A stretch of 64,000 bases of DNA from Terriglobia bacterium (GTDB taxonomy: Bacteria; Acidobacteriota; Terriglobia; 20CM-2-55-15). This document shows, piece by piece, positions 42,204-51,735 of this stretch. A model generated the notes under the pieces. That model had not been told where the DNA came from. It worked only from the letters and a program-made list of their open reading frames with translations, and did not search any database. Where the stretch lies: contig CAXWPJ010000002.1 in NCBI GenBank assembly GCA_963664115.2, positions 1 to 64,000 on the forward strand, in the 5' to 3' direction. The position numbers and the translations under genes are program-made. Each line of letters starts with the position of its first letter. The first letter of the stretch is position 1.

Positions 42204-42869
42204 TTATTCCTCGACGACGTATTCGAAGACCAGATACGAGATGGTGAAAAAGATGATATCAAAACCGATCACTAAGTTCACCCACGACGAATACCCGTCG
42301 CCCGTGTCACCGAGCGCTGCGGCAGTCGCCGAGACGGCAGCCAGAATGAGCGGAAGCGTCAGCGGTATTTGGAGGACAGGCAGCATGACCTCACTCATGC
42401 GCGTGTGCGACGAGATCATGGACAGGATCGTCCCGACCGCGGCAAACCCCAGCGTGCCAAGGATCATGATCAGAATGATCCAAAGCAGCCGTGTATCCAC
42501 TGGAAGATCATAGAAGACCACGAAGAATACGAATATCACGACGTCGGATAGCATCATGAAAAGGAAGTTGCTTATGACCTTTCCGGTATACAGCGTTCCC
42601 CGGTCTATGGGTGCCAGCAGCAAACCCTGTAGGGAATCGTTGTCGAGATCGATCGCAAGCGAGCGGTTCAAGCCGAGAATTCCTGCAAACGTCAGGGCGA
42701 CCCAGAGCACACCGGGCGCGATGAGCACCCGTTGCGTTCCCGCAGGTTCAAACGCGAAATTGAAGATCACCATGACAAGGAGTCCGAACATCATCATTGA
42801 CGCGACGGTCTCCTTCCGGCGCAACTCGAGCGCAATATCTTTCCGGACCAGGGCGATCAGCGCGTTCAT
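42204..42869 (-). CDS. ccmB: Heme exporter CcmB
   Basis: KDIALELR, GVLWVA, LLAPIDR, LPVLQIP. Confidence 0.9.
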   Translation of the reverse strand: MNALIALVRKDIALELRRKETVASMMMFGLLVMVIFNFAFEPAGTQRVLIAPGVLWVALTFAGILGLNRSLAIDLDNDSLQGLLLAPIDRGTLYTGKVISNFLFMMLSDVVIFVFFVVFYDLPVDTRLLWIILIMILGTLGFAAVGTILSMISSHTRMSEVMLPVLQIPLTLPLILAAVSATAAALGDTGDGYSSWVNLVIGFDIIFFTISYLVFEYVVEE

Positions 42870-43582
42870 TGCGGATCCTTTCCCCGAACATATTGCCGGT
42901 AGGCCTCTCGTATGCCCGGATCCGTTCCTTCTCCCGAATGAACGATTTTGCCCCGGTCGATAATGTGGACATGGTTCGCACCTCGCAGGCCCAGCTCGAG
43001 GTCGTGTGTCGTCAGAACGACCGTGCGTCCTTCCTCGACTGCTTCATCCAGCATCCGGTTCAGTATTTCAACTGCGTTGGCATCCAGACCGGTGTAGGGT
43101 TCGTCGAGAAGAAGAACGCGTGGATTGTGCAGCATGACACGTGCGAGGCCGACCCTCTGCAGGAGGCCACGGGAAAACGAACGCACTGCGTCGTTCCGTC
43201 TTCGGTGGAGTCCGACTCTCTGAATCAAGCCGTCGATGGTGTCTCCCGTGAGGTCGAGTCCGTAGAGCTTTGAAAAAAAAGCCAGGTTCTCTCGCGGTGT
43301 CAGGTCCCGATAAACGTAGGTACTGTGGGTGAGGAGTCCGATCGATCGCCGCACCTGCTCAGGTTTCTTTTCGGTATCGAATCCGTGGATTGAGAGTGTT
43401 CCATGACTCGGTTTCGCCAGCGTCGCTGCGATTTTAAGAAAGGTTGTCTTGCCGGCCCCGTTTCTGCCAAAGAGAGTCACGGACACGCCCCGGGGCACCT
43501 CCAGATCGATGCTTCGGAGGGCGGGGAAGTGACCGTAGGTTTTGGATATACCGCGGGCTTCGACAGCGAGGGTGTCATTCAT
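42866..43582 (-). CDS. ccmA: Heme exporter ATP-binding protein CcmA
   Basis: GRNGAGKT, FSRG, LLDEPYTGLD; cluster context. Confidence 0.9.
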   Translation of the reverse strand: MNDTLAVEARGISKTYGHFPALRSIDLEVPRGVSVTLFGRNGAGKTTFLKIAATLAKPSHGTLSIHGFDTEKKPEQVRRSIGLLTHSTYVYRDLTPRENLAFFSKLYGLDLTGDTIDGLIQRVGLHRRRNDAVRSFSRGLLQRVGLARVMLHNPRVLLLDEPYTGLDANAVEILNRMLDEAVEEGRTVVLTTHDLELGLRGANHVHIIDRGKIVHSGEGTDPGIREAYRQYVRGKDPQ

Positions 43583-43703
43583 AGGTAATGGGAAATGAAC
43601 CGTGACGAGAGATCGGGAAAGTTAATTGTCGAGAGCTAAAAGCTCCTTTCTCTTAACTATGAATACTTCACTCGTAACTTCAGGTGTCACCGGATACTTT
43701 CTT

Positions 43704-44078
43704 CTAGGCGTGCTTCTTTTCCCCCGATGATGAGGATTGAAGTTTATCGATCACGCGTGACAGCTCCCCTCGCAGCTGTCTCATCCGCCTCTTGTGGCTT
43801 TCCTTATTGAGGGTACCCGATTCGCGGGTCGTTTCGAGTTCCGTGATCTTGTCGAGGACGGTTTCGCGGTGCTGGCGCAGGGCCTGGCGTTCCTTTCGAT
43901 GGGTCTGCTCCTTCATGGTCTGGATGGAGAGGCTCGCAGCCCAGGCGAGGAACGCCGCGGTGATCAATACGATGAAAAGTGTGTGTGCGGCCATCGGGTT
44001 GGGTACCTGAATCGGTCCCTGCGCGTGAGCCGGGATCGCGAAGATGAGCCAGAGGAGGACGGCTGTCAGTCTGCGCAT
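43704..44078 (-). CDS. Membrane-anchored ccm-cluster accessory protein
   Basis: Signal peptide, TM helix, coiled coil with a CcmI-like LDKITELE..GTL motif. Confidence 0.6.
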   Translation of the reverse strand: MRRLTAVLLWLIFAIPAHAQGPIQVPNPMAAHTLFIVLITAAFLAWAASLSIQTMKEQTHRKERQALRQHRETVLDKITELETTRESGTLNKESHKRRMRQLRGELSRVIDKLQSSSSGEKKHA

Positions 44079-44083
44079 CCTAT

Positions 44084-44503
44084 TTAATCTAGATTCGTTC
44101 CGCAGTCTGCGCAGAACTTGTTCTGAGGGGAATTCCTGTGGCCGCAACCGGAACAGATACGGGAGCCGGCCACGCGTTCTTTCCTCGAGCTGACTTCATG
44201 TCGAATCAAAGCATCGAGATCCTGGGACGATTCGATTTCATCAATGCTCTCGAGCACCACTGCTATTTCGGCAGTCATTTCCTCTCGGATTAATTTGTAG
44301 TCTTCGTCCGAGAGCTTGCCGCACTTGTACTCAAAATCGAGATCCTGAATGTTGCCCAGGATGACATCCTTTTTTCGCTGAAGCAGATCCCACTGGGTTT
44401 CCTCAAGAATCGTGGAATCGAGAGAATCGGTTTTCGCGAAGAGGGGCCAGCAGATTGCGGTGAGAATGCCTCCACCGAGCAGTCCAGAAAATAAATAGAT
44501 CAT
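44084..44503 (-). CDS. CcmI-like protein with zinc ribbon
   Basis: N-terminal TM, IQDLDFEYKCGKLSDEDY, CSGC..FCADC. Confidence 0.75.
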   Translation of the reverse strand: MIYLFSGLLGGGILTAICWPLFAKTDSLDSTILEETQWDLLQRKKDVILGNIQDLDFEYKCGKLSDEDYKLIREEMTAEIAVVLESIDEIESSQDLDALIRHEVSSRKERVAGSRICSGCGHRNSPQNKFCADCGTNLD

Positions 44504-44533
44504 GACGCGGTGGGAACCGAAAGTCCTTCGACC

Positions 44534-45034
44534 TCAGTCTTCGGGAATAAAGTCCTCTAATTCGTCTTCAAGGCGCTGCTGGAAATCAGTCCCCGCCTGC
44601 TCCCCGAGTGCCGGCGCAACTTTGCTCCACCGGTTGCGGGAGCGAAGCGCGTAAAACGCGACCAGTCCGAACCCCACAGTCAGTGCGACGAAAGGCATCA
44701 ACCAGGAAGCGATGTTGAACCAGCCTGCCGTGGGCGGAGCTGCCAGGATGTTCAGACCATATTTCTCAGCGAAACGAGTAAGGATCGTCTCCTGGTCCAT
44801 GCCGTCTTCAATAAAGGCATCGACTTCGGCCCGCATCGGGTTCGCGTTCGGACAGCCAATATGGCTGCATACACCCAAGGTCTGATTGCAGCCGCCGCAG
44901 TTACACATCAACTCGCCGTAGACAACCTCAGGTTCCACCGTGTCGGCCTCCAGGCGCAAACACCCTGCAGCAGTTAGAAGAACCAGGAGGAGCGGAAAGC
45001 TAAGCGTGTACCTTTTCAGTCTTGCGAGTTTCAT
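44534..45034 (-). CDS. ccmH: Cytochrome c biogenesis protein CcmH
   Basis: LMCNCGGCNQTL, EKYG..ILAAPP, C-terminal TM. Confidence 0.88.
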   Translation of the reverse strand: MKLARLKRYTLSFPLLLVLLTAAGCLRLEADTVEPEVVYGELMCNCGGCNQTLGVCSHIGCPNANPMRAEVDAFIEDGMDQETILTRFAEKYGLNILAAPPTAGWFNIASWLMPFVALTVGFGLVAFYALRSRNRWSKVAPALGEQAGTDFQQRLEDELEDFIPED

Positions 45035-47048
45035 CTGTTTCCTTCTGATGTGCGACCTTTTCCTTCTTTTCCTTCCTCGACGTTCCGGGACCCTTGTTTG
45101 GAAGCAATGCGATCAGAGTTCCCAGCCCGATCACGAAACCGCCGATCCAGACCCAGCTCACCAGTGGGTTTCGATAGACCTGCATGATGGCGCGATTGTT
45201 TTCGGAAACACCGGCAAAGACTAAATAGAGGTCGTCCTGAAGAGTGGCTCGGATGGAAACCTCGTGGGTCTGTTGTTCGAGCGCCCTGTAGAAGCGGATC
45301 TCAGGGAACATGTTGGCGACCTGGACACCGTTCTTGAACAGACTGACTTCGGCCCAGGTGCGGTCGTAGTTCACCATTTCTTGTGAGCCGAAGTTGTCAG
45401 CTCGCAGGAGATATGGACCGATCGTGATCGTATCCCCGACATCGACTTCTTCCTGGACTTCAACGGTAAACGCCTGCCCTGTGAAACCGATAAATATGAG
45501 AACAATGCCGAAGTGAACTATGTAACCGCCGTAACGCCGCGTATTCCGAAGCGTGAGGTTGATCAATGCTTCGATGAGACCCTCGCCGGTGGTAGACCGC
45601 CGCGCGCGAGCCCCCTTGTAAAACTCCTGGAAAATCGTCATCGCCACGAAAATCGCCAGCGTGAGCGATATCAAGGCGTAGGCGTTATCGACACCCGAAA
45701 TTCCCAGTGCGATGCCTCCCATCAGGGCAACAGTGACCGGGAACAAGAATGCCCGCTTCAGGCTGCTCGGCGAAGAGCGTCTCCATGCAAGCAGCGGTCC
45801 CACGCCGGTCATAAACAGCAGACCCAATCCGATCGGGATCATGATGGTGTTGAACCAGGGTGTGGCTACGGTGACCTTCACGCCCTGAATCCATTCTGAA
45901 AACACCGGAAGCATCGTGCCGAAGAGAACCGCGAAACACGCGGCCACGAAGAGCAGGTTGTTCAGCATGAAACCGCTTTCTCGGGAGACAAGAGATTCCA
46001 TGGTGTTTTCGGTTTTCAAGTAGCTCAAGCGGCCAAACAGGAGGTAAAAGGATCCCGCTACAATGAGAATGATAAACGCCAGAAAGTAGCCGCCGATCGA
46101 CGACTGTGCAAAGGCGTGCACCGAAGAAACAATGCCGCTGCGGGTGAGGAAGGTGCCAAAAATGGCCGCGGTGTAGGTCAGAATCACCAGGACCATGTTC
46201 CAGACTTTCATCATGCCCTTTTTTTCCTGGATCATCACCGAGTGGAGGAATGCCGTTCCCAGGAGCCAGGGCATCAAAGACGCATTTTCTACCGGATCCC
46301 AGGCCCAGTACCCGCCCCAACCCAACTCCACGTAGGCCCACGCGCCGCCCAGTACGACGCCGGTGCCCAGGAAGAACCAGGAGATCATCGTCCACCGCCG
46401 GGTCGTCCGGATCCAAGTGTCGCCCAATTGCCGGCTTGCCATGGCGGCCATGGCAAATGCGAATGGGACCGAAAATCCGACGAGCCCCAGATAGAGTATG
46501 GGCGGGTGGATTACCATCATGAAATACTGCAGCAGGGGATTGAGTCCGCGGCCATCCGCAGCCGTAAATGCCCGCATGGTTCCATCGCCGGCGACGGTGA
46601 CGAGCTCATTGAACGGGTTTGCGACGAACAGGTTCAGTGATGTAAAGAAGATCGAAGTCGCCATCAGGACGGCGACGACGTAGGGCATCATCGCGGTGTG
46701 CCGTTTGCGGTTCTGGATGAAGACCAGGCTTGCGTAGAAACTCAGCAACCAGCCCCAAAGCAGGAGCGATCCTTCCTGTCCGCCCCAAATACCCGCGATC
46801 TTGTAGAACAGAGGCAGATCGCGATTCGAGTTACCCTGGATGTATCCGATCGAGAAATCGCTTACAAGAAAAAGATATCCCAGGCATGCGATGGCGACGG
46901 TCAGAGAGGCGAACACGCCGATGCCTGCGTTGCGGCCGCTTGCAATCAGCCTGTCGTTTTTGATGCGTATGCCGTACAACGACGCAGCGATCGCGTAAAC
47001 CGTTACCGTAAAGGCAAGGGCCAGGGCAAACTGCCCGAGTTGAGCCAT
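45000..47048 (-). CDS. ccmF: Heme lyase CcmF
   Basis: GQEGSLLLW, IHPP, WGGYWAWDPVENASL, SVHAF. Confidence 0.97.
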   Translation of the reverse strand: MAQLGQFALALAFTVTVYAIAASLYGIRIKNDRLIASGRNAGIGVFASLTVAIACLGYLFLVSDFSIGYIQGNSNRDLPLFYKIAGIWGGQEGSLLLWGWLLSFYASLVFIQNRKRHTAMMPYVVAVLMATSIFFTSLNLFVANPFNELVTVAGDGTMRAFTAADGRGLNPLLQYFMMVIHPPILYLGLVGFSVPFAFAMAAMASRQLGDTWIRTTRRWTMISWFFLGTGVVLGGAWAYVELGWGGYWAWDPVENASLMPWLLGTAFLHSVMIQEKKGMMKVWNMVLVILTYTAAIFGTFLTRSGIVSSVHAFAQSSIGGYFLAFIILIVAGSFYLLFGRLSYLKTENTMESLVSRESGFMLNNLLFVAACFAVLFGTMLPVFSEWIQGVKVTVATPWFNTIMIPIGLGLLFMTGVGPLLAWRRSSPSSLKRAFLFPVTVALMGGIALGISGVDNAYALISLTLAIFVAMTIFQEFYKGARARRSTTGEGLIEALINLTLRNTRRYGGYIVHFGIVLIFIGFTGQAFTVEVQEEVDVGDTITIGPYLLRADNFGSQEMVNYDRTWAEVSLFKNGVQVANMFPEIRFYRALEQQTHEVSIRATLQDDLYLVFAGVSENNRAIMQVYRNPLVSWVWIGGFVIGLGTLIALLPNKGPGTSRKEKKEKVAHQKETDETRKTEKVHA

Positions 47049-47060
47049 GAATTCCGGTCT

Positions 47061-47522
47061 CTAGAGTCCGCTTCCGATGTTCGGGGCGGAGGGGACTAAC
47101 TGGGTGGTTTCCGGAATCACGATGCCGGCTTCGGTTTCGCGTTCATATTTGGACGCGCACTTTGCCTGCAACTTGGTAGCCGTGAAAACACCGTTCCCGT
47201 TGTATGCTCCGTCGACGACAGCTTCAGCATAATCTCTGAACGTGTCCGGAAGGGGATCAGTCCCGACGTAATGGACGGTGAGCAACTGGTCGCCTTCACT
47301 GATCACGAAGTCGACCTGGCCCGCGCCTTTCTGGATCGACCCGGGAACTACCTCGCCTACAACCTTCAACCTCTCGTTACCGAGTGTGTCCGCCATCGCA
47401 TACAGCTCGGATACCGTCTGGAAGTACGCCCGTGTTTCCTGGAACGCCGAATAGCCGATCCACGTGAGGGCGAGTACGATTACGCTCGGCCCCAAAATAA
47501 ACTTTAATTGTTTGCGCGACAT
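47061..47522 (-). CDS. ccmE: Heme chaperone CcmE (CxxxY variant)
   Basis: VVPGSI, PDTF, AKCASKY. Confidence 0.9.
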   Translation of the reverse strand: MSRKQLKFILGPSVIVLALTWIGYSAFQETRAYFQTVSELYAMADTLGNERLKVVGEVVPGSIQKGAGQVDFVISEGDQLLTVHYVGTDPLPDTFRDYAEAVVDGAYNGNGVFTATKLQAKCASKYERETEAGIVIPETTQLVPSAPNIGSGL

Positions 47523-47626
47523 GAGCTTGCCTCTCCTCTCTGGCAGTTGCCATCCTAATCAGCACACTGAGAAAGTACACTGTAACGACCGCTACCGAGT
47601 ATTCTACCCAAAGCGAGTGGCGAAAC

Positions 47627-48051
47627 TTAAGTTTTTTCGTCCTTTTTTAAGAAATGTGAGGACCCCCGGATGCCCAGTGCGAGTAAGAAAATTGCTGTGG
47701 ACAGCCCCGCTGAGGTGAGACAGTACTCGCAATAAGGACGAACACCTGGATTCCGGTCAGGATCGCCGAAACCGCAAGCGCTGCGGCCGCCGGCCAGAAC
47801 ACGAGTCTGATGCTAATGCGTCGCCCGAACACTTCGAATACCGCCGCAGAGAAGACCGCGACATAAAAGGCCAGGCCGAACCAGGATACGGGAATCGGGC
47901 CCACTTCCGAATACACGCTGTTGAGAACGTCTCCGCAGCCTTCAGTGATGTGGCAGGGGACGGGTCCGGAATCGCGGGACAAGTACAGGTACAGCGTGTC
48001 GACCATCCCTGTAAACGATAGAGCAAGAACCCCTACCGGGCTGAGGTTCAT
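47627..48051 (-). pseudogene. Vitamin K epoxide reductase (VKOR), frameshifted
   Basis: CHITEGCGDVLNSVYS..GPIPVS..G; the catalytic YCEYCLTSA lies in another frame from about 47734, ending TAA 47627. Confidence 0.8.
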
Positions 48052-48770
48052 CCGGCGTCTTCTATAGCCGCGGCGATCGCGTTTTCAAACTCGCTTAAAG
48101 ACCGGGGCAATGCGATCATCTGGCCGTTGACGAAGAAGGTCGGCGTACCTGGAAGCTGCATCTGTTGTGCGCGTTCGGCGTCTGCCAGGACTCGAGCTTC
48201 GGGGCCGCCGGATCGATACGCGGTCTCAAACAGCTCCGGGTCCATTCCTAAGCGCTCGGCGTAAATGGTGAACACTTCGGCGGGGTTCGAATGGGTCGCC
48301 CATTGGCTTTGAAGCTCGAACAGCAGGTCATGCATTTCCCAGAAACCGTCCTGTTCAGCGGCGGCTTCGGTGGCGATTGCCGCAGCGAGGGCGTTCGGAT
48401 GGACCGAGACCAGCGGATAGTGATGGAATTCGAGTTGCAATTGGTCTGGGAACCGGTCCATCAACTGGGCGACGACTGGATGAAATGCCCCACAAGTCGG
48501 GCATTGGAAATCGCCGTATTCCATCAAGGTGACCACTGCGTTTTCCGGACCCTTGATCCGCAGGTCGTTTGTCGGCGTCAGGTCGGTGTTCCCGAGTGTG
48601 AGCGCGGTGCTGGGCCCTTGCTCGGCAGCGCTCCGGGAAAGGAATGCAGCCAGGGCAATGGCCGCAAACACGCCAAGTACGAGGATGGCTATTGGCTTCG
48701 TGTTTGATCGACGGGACGATCTCCTCGAAGGTTTCTTCGACGACGGGTTCGGGCTCGCTGTTTTGGTCAT
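48048..48770 (-). CDS. DsbA/DsbG-like thioredoxin-fold protein
   Basis: EYGDFQCPTC, HYPL, GTPTFFVNG. Confidence 0.92.
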   Translation of the reverse strand: MTKTASPNPSSKKPSRRSSRRSNTKPIAILVLGVFAAIALAAFLSRSAAEQGPSTALTLGNTDLTPTNDLRIKGPENAVVTLMEYGDFQCPTCGAFHPVVAQLMDRFPDQLQLEFHHYPLVSVHPNALAAAIATEAAAEQDGFWEMHDLLFELQSQWATHSNPAEVFTIYAERLGMDPELFETAYRSGGPEARVLADAERAQQMQLPGTPTFFVNGQMIALPRSLSEFENAIAAAIEDAG

Positions 48771-49132
48771 GGCCCTATACTAATTTCTGATGCGCTCGAT
48801 GGCAACCTTCACGAGCGTGGGTTCGTGCCTCAGTTTGAAAATCAGAAATTCCGTCCTTAACGTAAATTTCGCCCTGTCGTTCAGACGTCCGACCACCCCT
48901 GTCGCGTCAATACGAGTGGGTCGGAACGAGAAGCGACCCTCGTAATCTTCCCGACCCCCAGGGTCTCTTGAGCATACCGGTCTGTTAAAACAGGTCCCGG
49001 AACGTCTGCCATCCACTTCAGCGGAGCGTTTAGTATTTAATCTCATGAAGTCTGCGGCGGTGTCCTAGGGGCGGCAATGGGGCACGCGAGGGAGAAGCGG
49101 AGAAAAAAATACGAAGAAGGTGAAAAAAACCA

Positions 49133-49161
49133 TTGATATTTCTTCGTCACACATCAACAAT
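49133..49161 (+). promoter_or_regulatory. Putative sigma70 promoter of sRNA
   Basis: TTGATA-17-AACAAT preceded by A-tracts. Confidence 0.5.
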
Positions 49162-49167
49162 GGTTTC

Positions 49168-49370
49168 GTCTCTGACAAGAGACAAGAATTCTTCTAGTGA
49201 GTACAAGGCTACTCCAGCCAGGGACGGTAGTCGGCTACATCGGGTCAAAGGACGACTGAGGCGGGACGGACCCCGGGCGAAAAGGATTTCGTAATCGGAG
49301 CCAGATGTAGACGGTGAAGGAGACTAGAGGAAAAAGCCTCACAGCGCAGGACGCGTTGTGAGGCTTTTCT
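49168..49370 (+). ncRNA. Candidate structured sRNA with nine GGA motifs (CsrB/Rsm-like)
   Basis: Promoter upstream, intrinsic terminator downstream, closing helix TTCTTCTAGT/ACTAGAGGAA, GGA in hairpin loops. Confidence 0.6.
49331..49370 (+). terminator. Intrinsic terminator
   Basis: AAAAGCCTCACAGCGC-AGGAC-GCGTTGTGAGGCTTTT. Confidence 0.8.
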
Positions 49371-49466
49371 CATTATTCGGGCTCGACACCTCAGCGGTAA
49401 CCCCTGCCGTGTCGTCGGGCCAAGCCCTTGATAAGGTGTCGCTTGAGTGCTGTGCTATAGTCGGGC

Positions 49467-49856
49467 GTGGCCGAGTATACCGAAGAACACGCCCGTGCGG
49501 GTATCGAGGCGCCGTTGCCGGCTATCGAGTCCTGGCCGAACCAGTTTCCCGGATACGAGATCAGCATATCGATACCCGAGTTCACGTCGATCTGTCCCAA
49601 GACCGGGCTTCCCGACTTCGGAGTGCTTAGCCTTCGCTATCGTCCCGACGCGCTCTGCCTTGAACTGAAATCACTGAAGAATTACTTCCTCGCCTACCGG
49701 AATCTTGGAATTTTCTATGAGAACGTCGTCAACCGTGTGTTGCAGGACGTAGTCGACGCCTGCTCCCCGGTGGAGATTGAGGTGGTGGGAGAATTTAATG
49801 CCCGCGGTGGCATGCGAGCTGTCGTGAGAGCCGAGCATCAGAAAGTTAAAAGTTAA
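49467..49856 (+). CDS. queF: NADPH-dependent 7-cyano-7-deazaguanine reductase (short QueF)
   Basis: PEFTSICPKTGLPDFG, ELKSLK, RGG. Confidence 0.95.
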   Translation: MAEYTEEHARAGIEAPLPAIESWPNQFPGYEISISIPEFTSICPKTGLPDFGVLSLRYRPDALCLELKSLKNYFLAYRNLGIFYENVVNRVLQDVVDACSPVEIEVVGEFNARGGMRAVVRAEHQKVKS

Positions 49857-49899
49857 GTGCCAAGGGCTAAGCAATAGGATCGTTTAACTCTTAACTTTT
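49842..49899. terminator. Bidirectional hairpin between convergent queF and tkt
   Basis: AAAGTTAAAAGTTAA ... TTAACTCTTAACTTT. Confidence 0.5.
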
Positions 49900-51735
49900 G
49901 ACCATCCCAACAACTGCACGCACCCGCTCCGCTATTGCTGCCGCTCCGATACCAAAGGCTTCAATGAGTTCTTCCGGTTTGCCTGAGCGGGGCACACCGC
50001 GCACTGCGATCTTATGGACCGGAGCCTGATTGCCGACCGCATTCAAAACCGCATCGCCAATACCGCCGTCCCAATTGTGGTCTTCGACAACGACGATATG
50101 TCCTGTTTCTTTCGCAGCCGTGGCCAGAGTTCGAACGTCAATGGGTTTCACGGAATAGGCGTCGATGACTCGGATGTTTAAGCCTTCGGCTTCAAGCACA
50201 GCCTGTGCTTTTAGGGCTTCATGCAGCGTCACTCCAGCACCTACGATCGTCGCTTGATCGGACGGGGAGCTTCGAAGTACCTTGGACCCCCCGATCTCGA
50301 AGCTCTCATCGGAGGGATAGAGCACAGGGGCCTTCGGCCGCGTCGTTCTGAGATAGGAAATGCCCGCGTGGTCCGCCATTGCCGCAACGAGGTGTTCGGT
50401 TGAGACCGCGTCACTGGGATACAGCACCACAGAATCCGGTATTGCCCGGAACATCGCGATGTCTTCCAGGCCCATCTGTGAAGGGCCGTCCTGTCCGATC
50501 GACACCCCACAATGGGATCCAACGAAATTGATATTGGCCTGCGAAATCCGGGCCATGCGGATCTGGTCAAAAGCTCGCGTTAAGAATGCGGCAAAAGTCG
50601 ATATGAAAGGAATCTTGCCGCAAGCGGCCATGCCGGCCGCTACGCCCACCATGTTTTGTTCGGCAATAAACATTTCGAAGAAGTGGTCGGCGTGCTTGTC
50701 GATTAGCTTCTGAGAGAACGTGGAATTTTTCGTGTCTCCATCGAGCGCCACTACACGGGGATCCTGGTCGACGAGCTTCACCAGTGCGTCCCCGTATGCC
50801 TCGCGGGTGGCTGTTTGGCTTCCGAGTTCCCTGGAAACCTGAATACGGTGCGAAGCGGGTCCGGATGCCGAAGCAACAGGCTTCCGAGGCGAGGGGGTGA
50901 AACCGTCCCCGGCGTAAGGCTGGGACAGCTCTTTGAGCGCTGCTTCGAGTTCGGCTTCAGGGACAGGTTTTCCGTGCCAGTTGTCCTTGTCTTCAAATAG
51001 GGAGACTCCCTTGCCCTTGAGGGTCCTCGCCACGATCGCTCGGGGCTTCTCCCCGCCCTTGGCCCGGCACTCCTTGAAGGCATCGACAATCTGATCGTAG
51101 TCATGGCCGTCGACTGTGACGGCATACCATCCAAAGGCCCGGAAGATCTCGGCATACCGATCGACATCGAAGCCATACATGGTCCGCTGGCTTTGGCCCT
51201 GCCCGTTGACATCGACGATTGCAAACAGGTTGTCGGCTTTGTAATAACTCGCCAGTGCTGCGGCTTCCCACACCGATCCTTCGGCGCATTCGCCGTCTCC
51301 CAACAGGGCGAAGGTGTCGTATCCGGCACCGTCGAGTCTGGAAGCCAAAGCGATACCCAGAGCTGCCGACAGGCCCTGACCGAGCGATCCGGTCGCGACG
51401 TCAACCCAGGGTATTCGAGGCGTCGGATGGCCCTCAAAATCGCTGTCGAATTTCCGCAGCGTCATGGGCGCATCGGGAGCGATCATGCCGGCTTCCGCAT
51501 ACGCTGCCCAGAGTAGAGGCGCCGCGTGACCCTTCGAGAGAACAAAACGATCGTTCGCACCATTGCCCGGATCGGCCGGGTCGTATCGCATCTCCTGGAA
51601 AAACATCACCGACGCGAGGTCGGCTGCGGACAGGCATGACGAGGGGTGCCCCGAGCCCGCCTCAGTCGTGCTTCTTATGGACGATACGCGCATACGACGC
51701 GCCTTTTCTTTCAGGAACTCGATCGATGGTGTCAT
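49891..51735 (-). CDS. tkt: Transketolase (single-chain form)
   Basis: SGHP, LSKGHA, ATGSLGQG, GDGE, IAEQNM, DGPSQ. Confidence 0.95.
   Translation of the reverse strand: MTPSIEFLKEKARRMRVSSIRSTTEAGSGHPSSCLSAADLASVMFFQEMRYDPADPGNGANDRFVLSKGHAAPLLWAAYAEAGMIAPDAPMTLRKFDSDFEGHPTPRIPWVDVATGSLGQGLSAALGIALASRLDGAGYDTFALLGDGECAEGSVWEAAALASYYKADNLFAIVDVNGQGQSQRTMYGFDVDRYAEIFRAFGWYAVTVDGHDYDQIVDAFKECRAKGGEKPRAIVARTLKGKGVSLFEDKDNWHGKPVPEAELEAALKELSQPYAGDGFTPSPRKPVASASGPASHRIQVSRELGSQTATREAYGDALVKLVDQDPRVVALDGDTKNSTFSQKLIDKHADHFFEMFIAEQNMVGVAAGMAACGKIPFISTFAAFLTRAFDQIRMARISQANINFVGSHCGVSIGQDGPSQMGLEDIAMFRAIPDSVVLYPSDAVSTEHLVAAMADHAGISYLRTTRPKAPVLYPSDESFEIGGSKVLRSSPSDQATIVGAGVTLHEALKAQAVLEAEGLNIRVIDAYSVKPIDVRTLATAAKETGHIVVVEDHNWDGGIGDAVLNAVGNQAPVHKIAVRGVPRSGKPEELIEAFGIGAAAIAERVRAVVGMVKS

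Follow-up and report, generated by a model that had tools for sequence, protein, structure and literature searches.

The RNA described here lies on the forward strand of the window, the whole 64,000-nucleotide stretch of DNA that was analysed, between a divergent gene for a DsbA/thioredoxin-like protein and queF. The features of the locus are as follows.

48048..48770, minus strand: DsbA/thioredoxin-like gene, divergent neighbour, scoring below family cut-offs
49133..49161, plus strand: sigma70-type promoter-like site (-35 TTGATA, 17 nt, -10 AACAAT; start predicted at about 49168)
49168..49183, plus strand: 5' hairpin predicted for class 1 copies, outside the RNA model (R1); homologues are similar by eye
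49190..49331, plus strand: RNA body with nested helices P1-P4, from the predicted fold and the comparative structure
49190-49198/49323-49331: helix P1
49212-49215/49319-49322: helix P2
49230-49241/49304-49315: helix P3
49256-49259/49295-49298: helix P4
49217..49228, plus strand: SL1, 3-bp stem with an AGGGAC hexaloop, a canonical ANGGAN site
49244..49256, plus strand: SL2, AGGA loop on a weak, variable stem
49263..49273, plus strand: SL3, ACGGA loop
49278..49291, plus strand: SL4, AAGGAU loop
49332..49368, plus strand: intrinsic terminator of 16 pairs, with a conserved A(N)NGA site, the fifth, in its loop
49453..49461, plus strand: extended -10 element of queF, read from the sequence, roughly 5 nt upstream of the start codon
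49467..49856, plus strand: queF, preQ1 synthase, above the TIGR03139 cut-off

On the other side, a cytochrome c maturation-like cluster (42866-48770, minus strand) adjoins the RNA; it includes what we take to be VKOR-like and DsbA-like genes.

The first-pass annotation had proposed a promoter-to-terminator unit of about 200 nt with no convincing open reading frame, and both ends could be located. The frames overlapping 49133-49372 are of 20-53 aa, barring one of 90 aa that begins in the terminator, and the alignment of homologues contains numerous indels of 1-2 nt. A search of the 64-kb window for tRNA and tmRNA found none. All nine GGA triplets that had been counted are present (49222, 49250, 49264, 49268, 49284, 49297, 49319, 49329 and 49349). 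Their raw density is only moderately rare, nine or more GGA being found in 0.18% of the genome's 130-nt windows. In the comparative structure five of the nine are displayed in loops (49222, 49250, 49268 and 49284 in the side loops and 49349 in the terminator loop) and it is these that count; the other four are partly or wholly embedded in stems, and to that extent the earlier claim had to be narrowed. A scan of the unit for A(N)GGA in hairpin loops returns exactly the same five. At least five such hairpin sites within 170 nt occur at two loci in the 4.9-Mb genome, and as the second is inside the coding region of a primary sigma factor the RNA is the sole non-coding one.

The fold has a z-score of -4.08 and none of 200 shuffled sequences was equally stable. 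The long-range helices that had been suggested are part of this predicted fold and covary among homologues. For the window copy the comparative fold lies 6.8 kcal/mol above the minimum free energy (MFE), and the SL1 loop is 19-41% unpaired in the single-sequence ensemble (mean of 42% across copies). The stem beneath the SL2 loop is weak, with 47% of alignment cells paired.

No match to a known family was found for the unit in Rfam. Searching 48000-50500 gave nothing at E<=10, the unit alone gave one terminator match that we read as chance, and five homologous loci had no match on the RNA. The covariance models of CsrB and CsrC, and of RsmX, RsmY and RsmZ, do not match it. 6S RNA (RF00013) has no match at the unit either; the 6S RNA of this genome is on another contig (G000:C10:140135-140317).

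Distribution, covariation and loop conservation of the family

The RNA is a conserved, probably stand-alone non-coding gene, absent from the sampled Terriglobia outside one family, here termed f1. Full-length copies, from none to four per genome, were found in 31 of the 35 f1 genomes, whereas the 26 genomes from elsewhere in the class had none. By BLAST at E<1e-3 the unit is in 30 of 34 f1 relatives and 0 of the 26, and with the RNA model copies are in 31 of the 34 (G032 having a truncated one only) and again in none of the 26; the model found no copy in G016, G022 or G025. A weak match in G016 contains the SL1 string in another context. Searching metagenome loci, the model matched 74 of 80. 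Scanning GTDB with an exact pattern returned 30 stretches; the titles of 27 name Terriglobia, Acidobacteria ('gp5' in several cases) or a family or genus of acidobacteria. The other three are in other phyla and were rejected as chance, the rest of the RNA being absent there. The core pattern had no matches in viral contigs. In a sample of 150 genomes from the phylum, with 17 candidates scored per genome, six gave weak matches of at most 23.7 bits, and the three of these that were inspected are terminator-like or apparently coding sequence. G083, which is marked as unpublished, counts in this tally alone.

Of 47 collected copies 43 were aligned; the four left out were three whose terminator is replaced and one that is divergent. 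RNAalifold recovered P1, P2, SL1, SL3 and the terminator from this alignment; P3, P4, SL2 and SL4 were added to the consensus structure by hand. The covariation score, taken on an unfitted MAFFT alignment and inflated by kinship, was 0.350, as against 0.195 after shuffling and no more than 0.109 when the partners were slid, and in the same unfitted alignment 85% of cells pair. In P2 the pair 49212/49322 changes from C-G to G-C in 16 of the 43 sequences. A pair scan for further helices or a pseudoknot revealed nothing consistent. Among the homologues, then, the helices covary and the loop GGA are kept.

Among 56 distinct full-length genome copies GGA is present in 214 of 224 side loops. By loop, it is found in 53 of 56 for SL1 (a count helped in part by the way the set was built, since this loop served as the anchor for seed copies), 54 for SL2, 54 for SL3 and 53 for SL4. 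In a held-out set of 67 distinct metagenome copies that were outside model building, where SL1 was fixed by the search pattern and a few sequences may overlap with the genome set, the counts are 62 of 67 for SL2, 62 for SL3 and 51 for SL4, and 14 of the 16 SL4 loops without GGA retain A(N)HGA. The contrast with the surroundings is clearest in SL2, where the AGGA columns are 96-100% identical and the flanking columns 34-66%. Across the RNA, 21 unpaired columns are conserved at 85% or more and 16 of them are in the four GGA loops. Among the side loops without GGA, 22 of the 28 distinct strings (which are non-independent) retain A(N)HGA, so that the first G alone has changed. In the terminator loop GGA is found in 31 of 53 intact loops from genomes and 5 of 66 from metagenomes, and all the others have A(N)HGA. 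As background, A(N)NGA occurs in 4 of 44 distinct loops of the genome's terminator-like hairpins.

Copy classes, promoters and transcripts

Class 1 copies lie between the dsbA-like gene (28 of 30 loci) and queF (29 of 30). Of 30 class 1 copies 26 are preceded by a sigma70-type pattern, which in one case is at an atypical distance; of 19 class 2 copies none is. Class 2 is one clade (98/99), the only class that the tree of copies resolves as such, and occurs singly or in tandem arrays of two or three; the genome's own copy is at G000:C10:548637-548822. Motif scans used the consensus patterns of sigma54, IHF and sigma28. A sigma54-type TGG-N9-TGC is found 35-39 nt upstream of the model start in 19 of 20 class 2 copies, an IHF-like site in 15 of 20 and, farther upstream, a conserved element with inverted arms in 13 of 20; none of the three is found at any of 30 class 1 copies. 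The right half of the upstream element also fits the sigma28 pattern in 15 of the 20. rpoN is present in the genome, where the inverted-arm element, enhancer-like in appearance, is at G000:C10:548459-548499 (L047). As a regulon marker the element was unrewarding, with a sigma54 motif downstream at just one of its 17 genome matches. Class 3 comprises seven divergent copies in mixed contexts, and both class 2 and class 3 copies are away from dsbA and queF.

Several rearrangements were seen at these loci. In the genus g3 (L181-L185) queF is inverted in place, and in G028 one breakpoint is at the 3' end of the RNA. Insertion sequences interrupt class 1 copies (L014:1707-3194, L017:541-1490); an ISL3-type element is in one class 1 5' end and an IS1595-type element in one class 1 terminator loop. 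In G007 a class 2 copy is split at CTAG by two transposase genes (L036:3633-6501, L153:1-2223). Class 2 copies often converge on a gene of 112-125 aa (L036, L037, L041, L042, L045, L153), for which two copies scanned against Pfam gave no match.

Transcript evidence comes from contigs over the RNA body, which carry no strand, ends or level. Positions 49176-49323 are covered by contigs with 0-1 differences in all four of the sponge metatranscriptomes examined, which are from one study, the runs, all of RNA, having been chosen for containing part of 48700-49900. Run X2 has an exact 141-nt contig on the RNA at a depth of 195 and an exact 177-nt contig 2 kb away at a depth of 3.3, the latter indicating that the organism is in the run. 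The bins flanking the RNA on both sides have no depth. Almost none of the sequence words of this locus occurred in three RNA runs from a second study. For the genome's own class 2 copy, X2 gave two short diverged contigs and X1, X3 and X11 none.

CsrA proteins and their co-occurrence with the RNA

A check for csrA and fliW, which the first-pass annotation had advised, revealed two csrA genes plus fliW. The first, type A, adjoins fliW and a gene with a flagellin domain. Its product scores above the TIGR00202 and PRK01712 cut-offs, keeps Arg44 and Asn55 and is nearly invariant within f1, so that judged by its sequence the genome encodes a CsrA of the RNA-binding-competent type. The second, type B, is an orphan gene (G000:C9:507310-507534; L002:1402-1629). 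Residues 1-43 alone match, the score is below both cut-offs and Arg44 is absent: all 119 top homologues have Thr44 followed by Arg or Lys45, with no HREE-type motif. An AlphaFold2 monomer of this Thr44 CsrA, weak with a pLDDT of 66.6 and a tail below 50, has strands and no helix and was given no weight. According to the accessible text of one review (PMC7366521), binding requires Arg44, the residue that reads the first G in GGA, and there and in PMC4894983, likewise available in part, CsrA is described as preferring GGA in loops. Type A is therefore the safe partner for the RNA and type B would be either a non-binder or a binder of relaxed specificity.

By profile score type B is in 28 of the 35 f1 genomes and in none of the 150 phylum genomes, of which 28 have some CsrA. 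csrA as a whole was found in 32 of 34 f1 relatives, as compared with 2 of the 26 genomes from the rest of the class. Of the 35 f1 genomes 28 encode FliW, and 27 have it together with a full-length RNA. Full-length RNA is present in 27 of 28 genomes with type B as against 4 of 7 without.

Individual genomes speak both for and against a link. Within g3, G028 has both CsrAs, FliW, a class 1 body without its terminator and one class 2 copy. In G006, G022 and G025 the interval between dsbA and queF is contiguous and lacks the RNA. G022 (99% complete) and G025 (85%) have a CsrA of the canonical type and no RNA. In these two proteins (L168:1501-1746 and L167:1501-1746) the Asn55 region is lost, and neither FliW nor flagellin accompanies them. 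csrA was not found in G006, which is complete, or in G016. G006 nevertheless has a 72-bit class 2 copy with GGA in three of four side loops, that of SL1 being lost, which counts against a strict dependence on CsrA. It is the only one of 20 class 2 copies without the sigma54 motif. G005 has type B and two intact copies of the RNA, with no canonical CsrA, FliW or flagellin. An RNA with no type B found is seen in G020 (68% complete), G026 (92%) and G019 (88%; SL1 and SL2 altered), and G032 has both CsrAs and the truncated RNA only. These cases are few independent events, and since a single event may account for the losses in g3 the co-occurrence is statistically weak.

The genome has six flagellin genes (G000:C9:633093, C9:73312, C9:629490, C2:992104, C9:22514 and C4:31607). 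ACGGAU or AAGGAU is found in four of the six leaders, in two of them within a hairpin loop of the MFE structure. Four of the six genes have a match to a TAAA-N16-CCGATA-type promoter, and three of the leaders share a GGGGCTA..GAAC motif.

Function of the RNA and relation to known systems

We consider it likely that the RNA is a CsrA-titrating sRNA, resembling RsmY and RsmZ in action and non-homologous to them. The Csr-type titration put forward at the outset is supported by the conserved loop GGA and the two csrA genes; no known family was matched, and GGA conservation, transcript contigs and csrA were all found. In such a scheme the nested rod, with its four GGA side loops and terminator loop, would sequester CsrA-family dimers from mRNA leaders. 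The class 1 copy with its sigma70-type promoter would provide a standing level of decoy, and class 2 copies, with a sigma54-type promoter, IHF-like site and upstream element, would supply extra decoy once their activator is on. FliW would hold the canonical CsrA in parallel with the RNA, and the flagellin leaders with ACGGAU or AAGGAU hairpins may be among the targets released. Two features count against this reading. The SL1-P2 core is near-invariant, and this core and the nested rod are more constrained than a simple sponge requires; and the paralogue that tracks the RNA best, type B, is the one without Arg44.

A further, more speculative scheme is that the RNA co-evolved with the Thr44 paralogue, which would read relaxed A(N)NGA loops, so that one RNA would titrate both CsrAs. 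Strict GGA loops would then serve the FliW-controlled flagellar CsrA and all loops, including that of the terminator, the Thr44 paralogue; here too a sigma70 copy would set the baseline and sigma54 copies would be inducible. The loops that have lost GGA change mainly the first G, the base read by Arg44, which hints at the Thr44 paralogue as a partner, and this tolerance together with the case of G005 favours reading type B as a binder of relaxed specificity. We nonetheless regard this two-CsrA scheme as tentative and on the whole doubtful.

It would seem unlikely that the A(N)NGA loops are shown to a protein other than CsrA, or that the RNA scaffolds a ribonucleoprotein with another job. The mostly intact copy in G006, without csrA, would fit such a role, as would a common denominator of the loops that is A(N)NGA and not strict GGA, and an architecture more rigid than that of CsrB-type RNAs. 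On the other hand the copy in G006 has no promoter motif, GGA predominates in SL1-SL4, and f1 is the chief csrA-bearing group among the 60 relatives searched. We know of no other protein that binds loops of this kind.

A trans-acting sRNA that base-pairs with the aid of Hfq, with the conserved segment as its seed, is improbable. Hfq is present in the genome, the RNA has an intrinsic terminator and class 1 copies share a near-invariant stretch of 25 nt, but this stretch is internally paired, P2 has a compensatory change, and the conserved unpaired columns are nearly all loop GGA, leaving no conserved single-stranded seed.

We give still less weight to a dispersed mobile repeat like TwoAYGGAY (RF01731), in which the loops would be incidental. 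SL3 and SL4 on a shared stem do recall the TwoAYGGAY core, whose architecture is described in the accessible part of the Minerva preprint, and copies are both tandem and scattered. In some class 1 copies each of the two loops reads ACGGAY, and elsewhere other ANGGA variants mostly occur. However, RF01731 matches none of five genomes at E<=5 (none of 14 control genomes passed the cut-off either), full-length copies are few in each genome with class 1 fixed at one locus, and the copies have promoter motifs of their own.

That the RNA acts in cis on queF, as its leader or as a preQ1-type riboswitch, is hardly credible, for although the RNA is upstream of queF at most class 1 loci with a terminator at its end, no preQ1 riboswitch family gave a covariance-model match to it, a conserved -10 element belongs to queF itself, no class 2 or class 3 locus is near queF, and queF is inverted in g3. 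That queF has a promoter of its own had been suggested from the window and is upheld by a -10-like hexamer, matched loosely, that lies no more than 25 nt from the start of queF at 23 of the 25 loci with a recognised start. The gene looks leaderless, with a similar spacing from -10 to start in many relatives, and its transcript is probably separate from the RNA.

Returning to a CsrA-titrating sRNA, the RNA is like CsrB/CsrC and RsmX/RsmY/RsmZ in being a probable stand-alone unit with a terminator and with GGA in loops, including an ANGGAN hexaloop, in having redundant paralogues and in its occurrence in a genome with csrA. Unlike them it has no Rfam similarity, its loops branch off a nested long-range rod, its host belongs to the Acidobacteriota and encodes FliW and a second CsrA without Arg44, and its copies fall into classes with sigma70-type and sigma54-type promoter motifs, which would set it apart from RNAs under BarA/UvrY control.

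The idea of Csr-type RNAs outside the Gammaproteobacteria is already in print, as predictions. TwoAYGGAY and Bacillaceae-1 (RF01690) are predicted CsrA binders there (PMC4333381, in the part available), and in both, as here, two GGA hairpins on a shared stem are seen and the role of CsrA is predicted; the present RNA differs in matching neither model, in its low copy number and fixed locus and in having its own promoter and terminator. Soil-1 and Solibacter-1 (Weinberg 2010), in so far as they are accessible there, differ from the RNA by eye. As in the CsrA-FliW-flagellin systems of Bacillus, Campylobacter and Geobacter, taken from the available portions of PMC4894983 and PMC11934962, csrA adjoins fliW and a flagellin-domain gene, Asn55 is kept and GGA hairpins occur in flagellin leaders. 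The same portions give the flaA mRNA as the sponge in Campylobacter, with no dedicated sRNA (PMC4894983), and the Csr sRNAs beside FliW in Geobacter as software predictions (PMC11934962), whereas here there is a dedicated RNA family with comparative and transcript support. Antagonists of the sRNA kind have been proposed for Gammaproteobacteria, with FliW in that role in Acidobacteria and some other groups (Zere 2015, PMC4682653, available in part), and control of CsrA by sRNA and by FliW is termed mutually exclusive in the accessible text of PMC7366521. Weinberg 2010, PMC9029176, PMC3627812, PMC11882849 and PMC5668361 were also compared, each for its available portion. The literature searched, which covers few subscription papers, contains no account of this RNA family or of any Csr sRNA in Acidobacteria.

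The family is real, has no description in the literature searched and is probably a Csr-type sponge that arose by convergence. Beyond the earlier predictions it offers covariation across a whole family, evidence of transcripts, FliW in the same genomes, promoters of two classes and a CsrA without Arg44. Should the binding prove true, RNA mimicry of CsrA targets would have arisen independently in a lineage that bears FliW. The Thr44 paralogue is also a naturally occurring variant with which the reading of the first G in GGA by CsrA can be probed.
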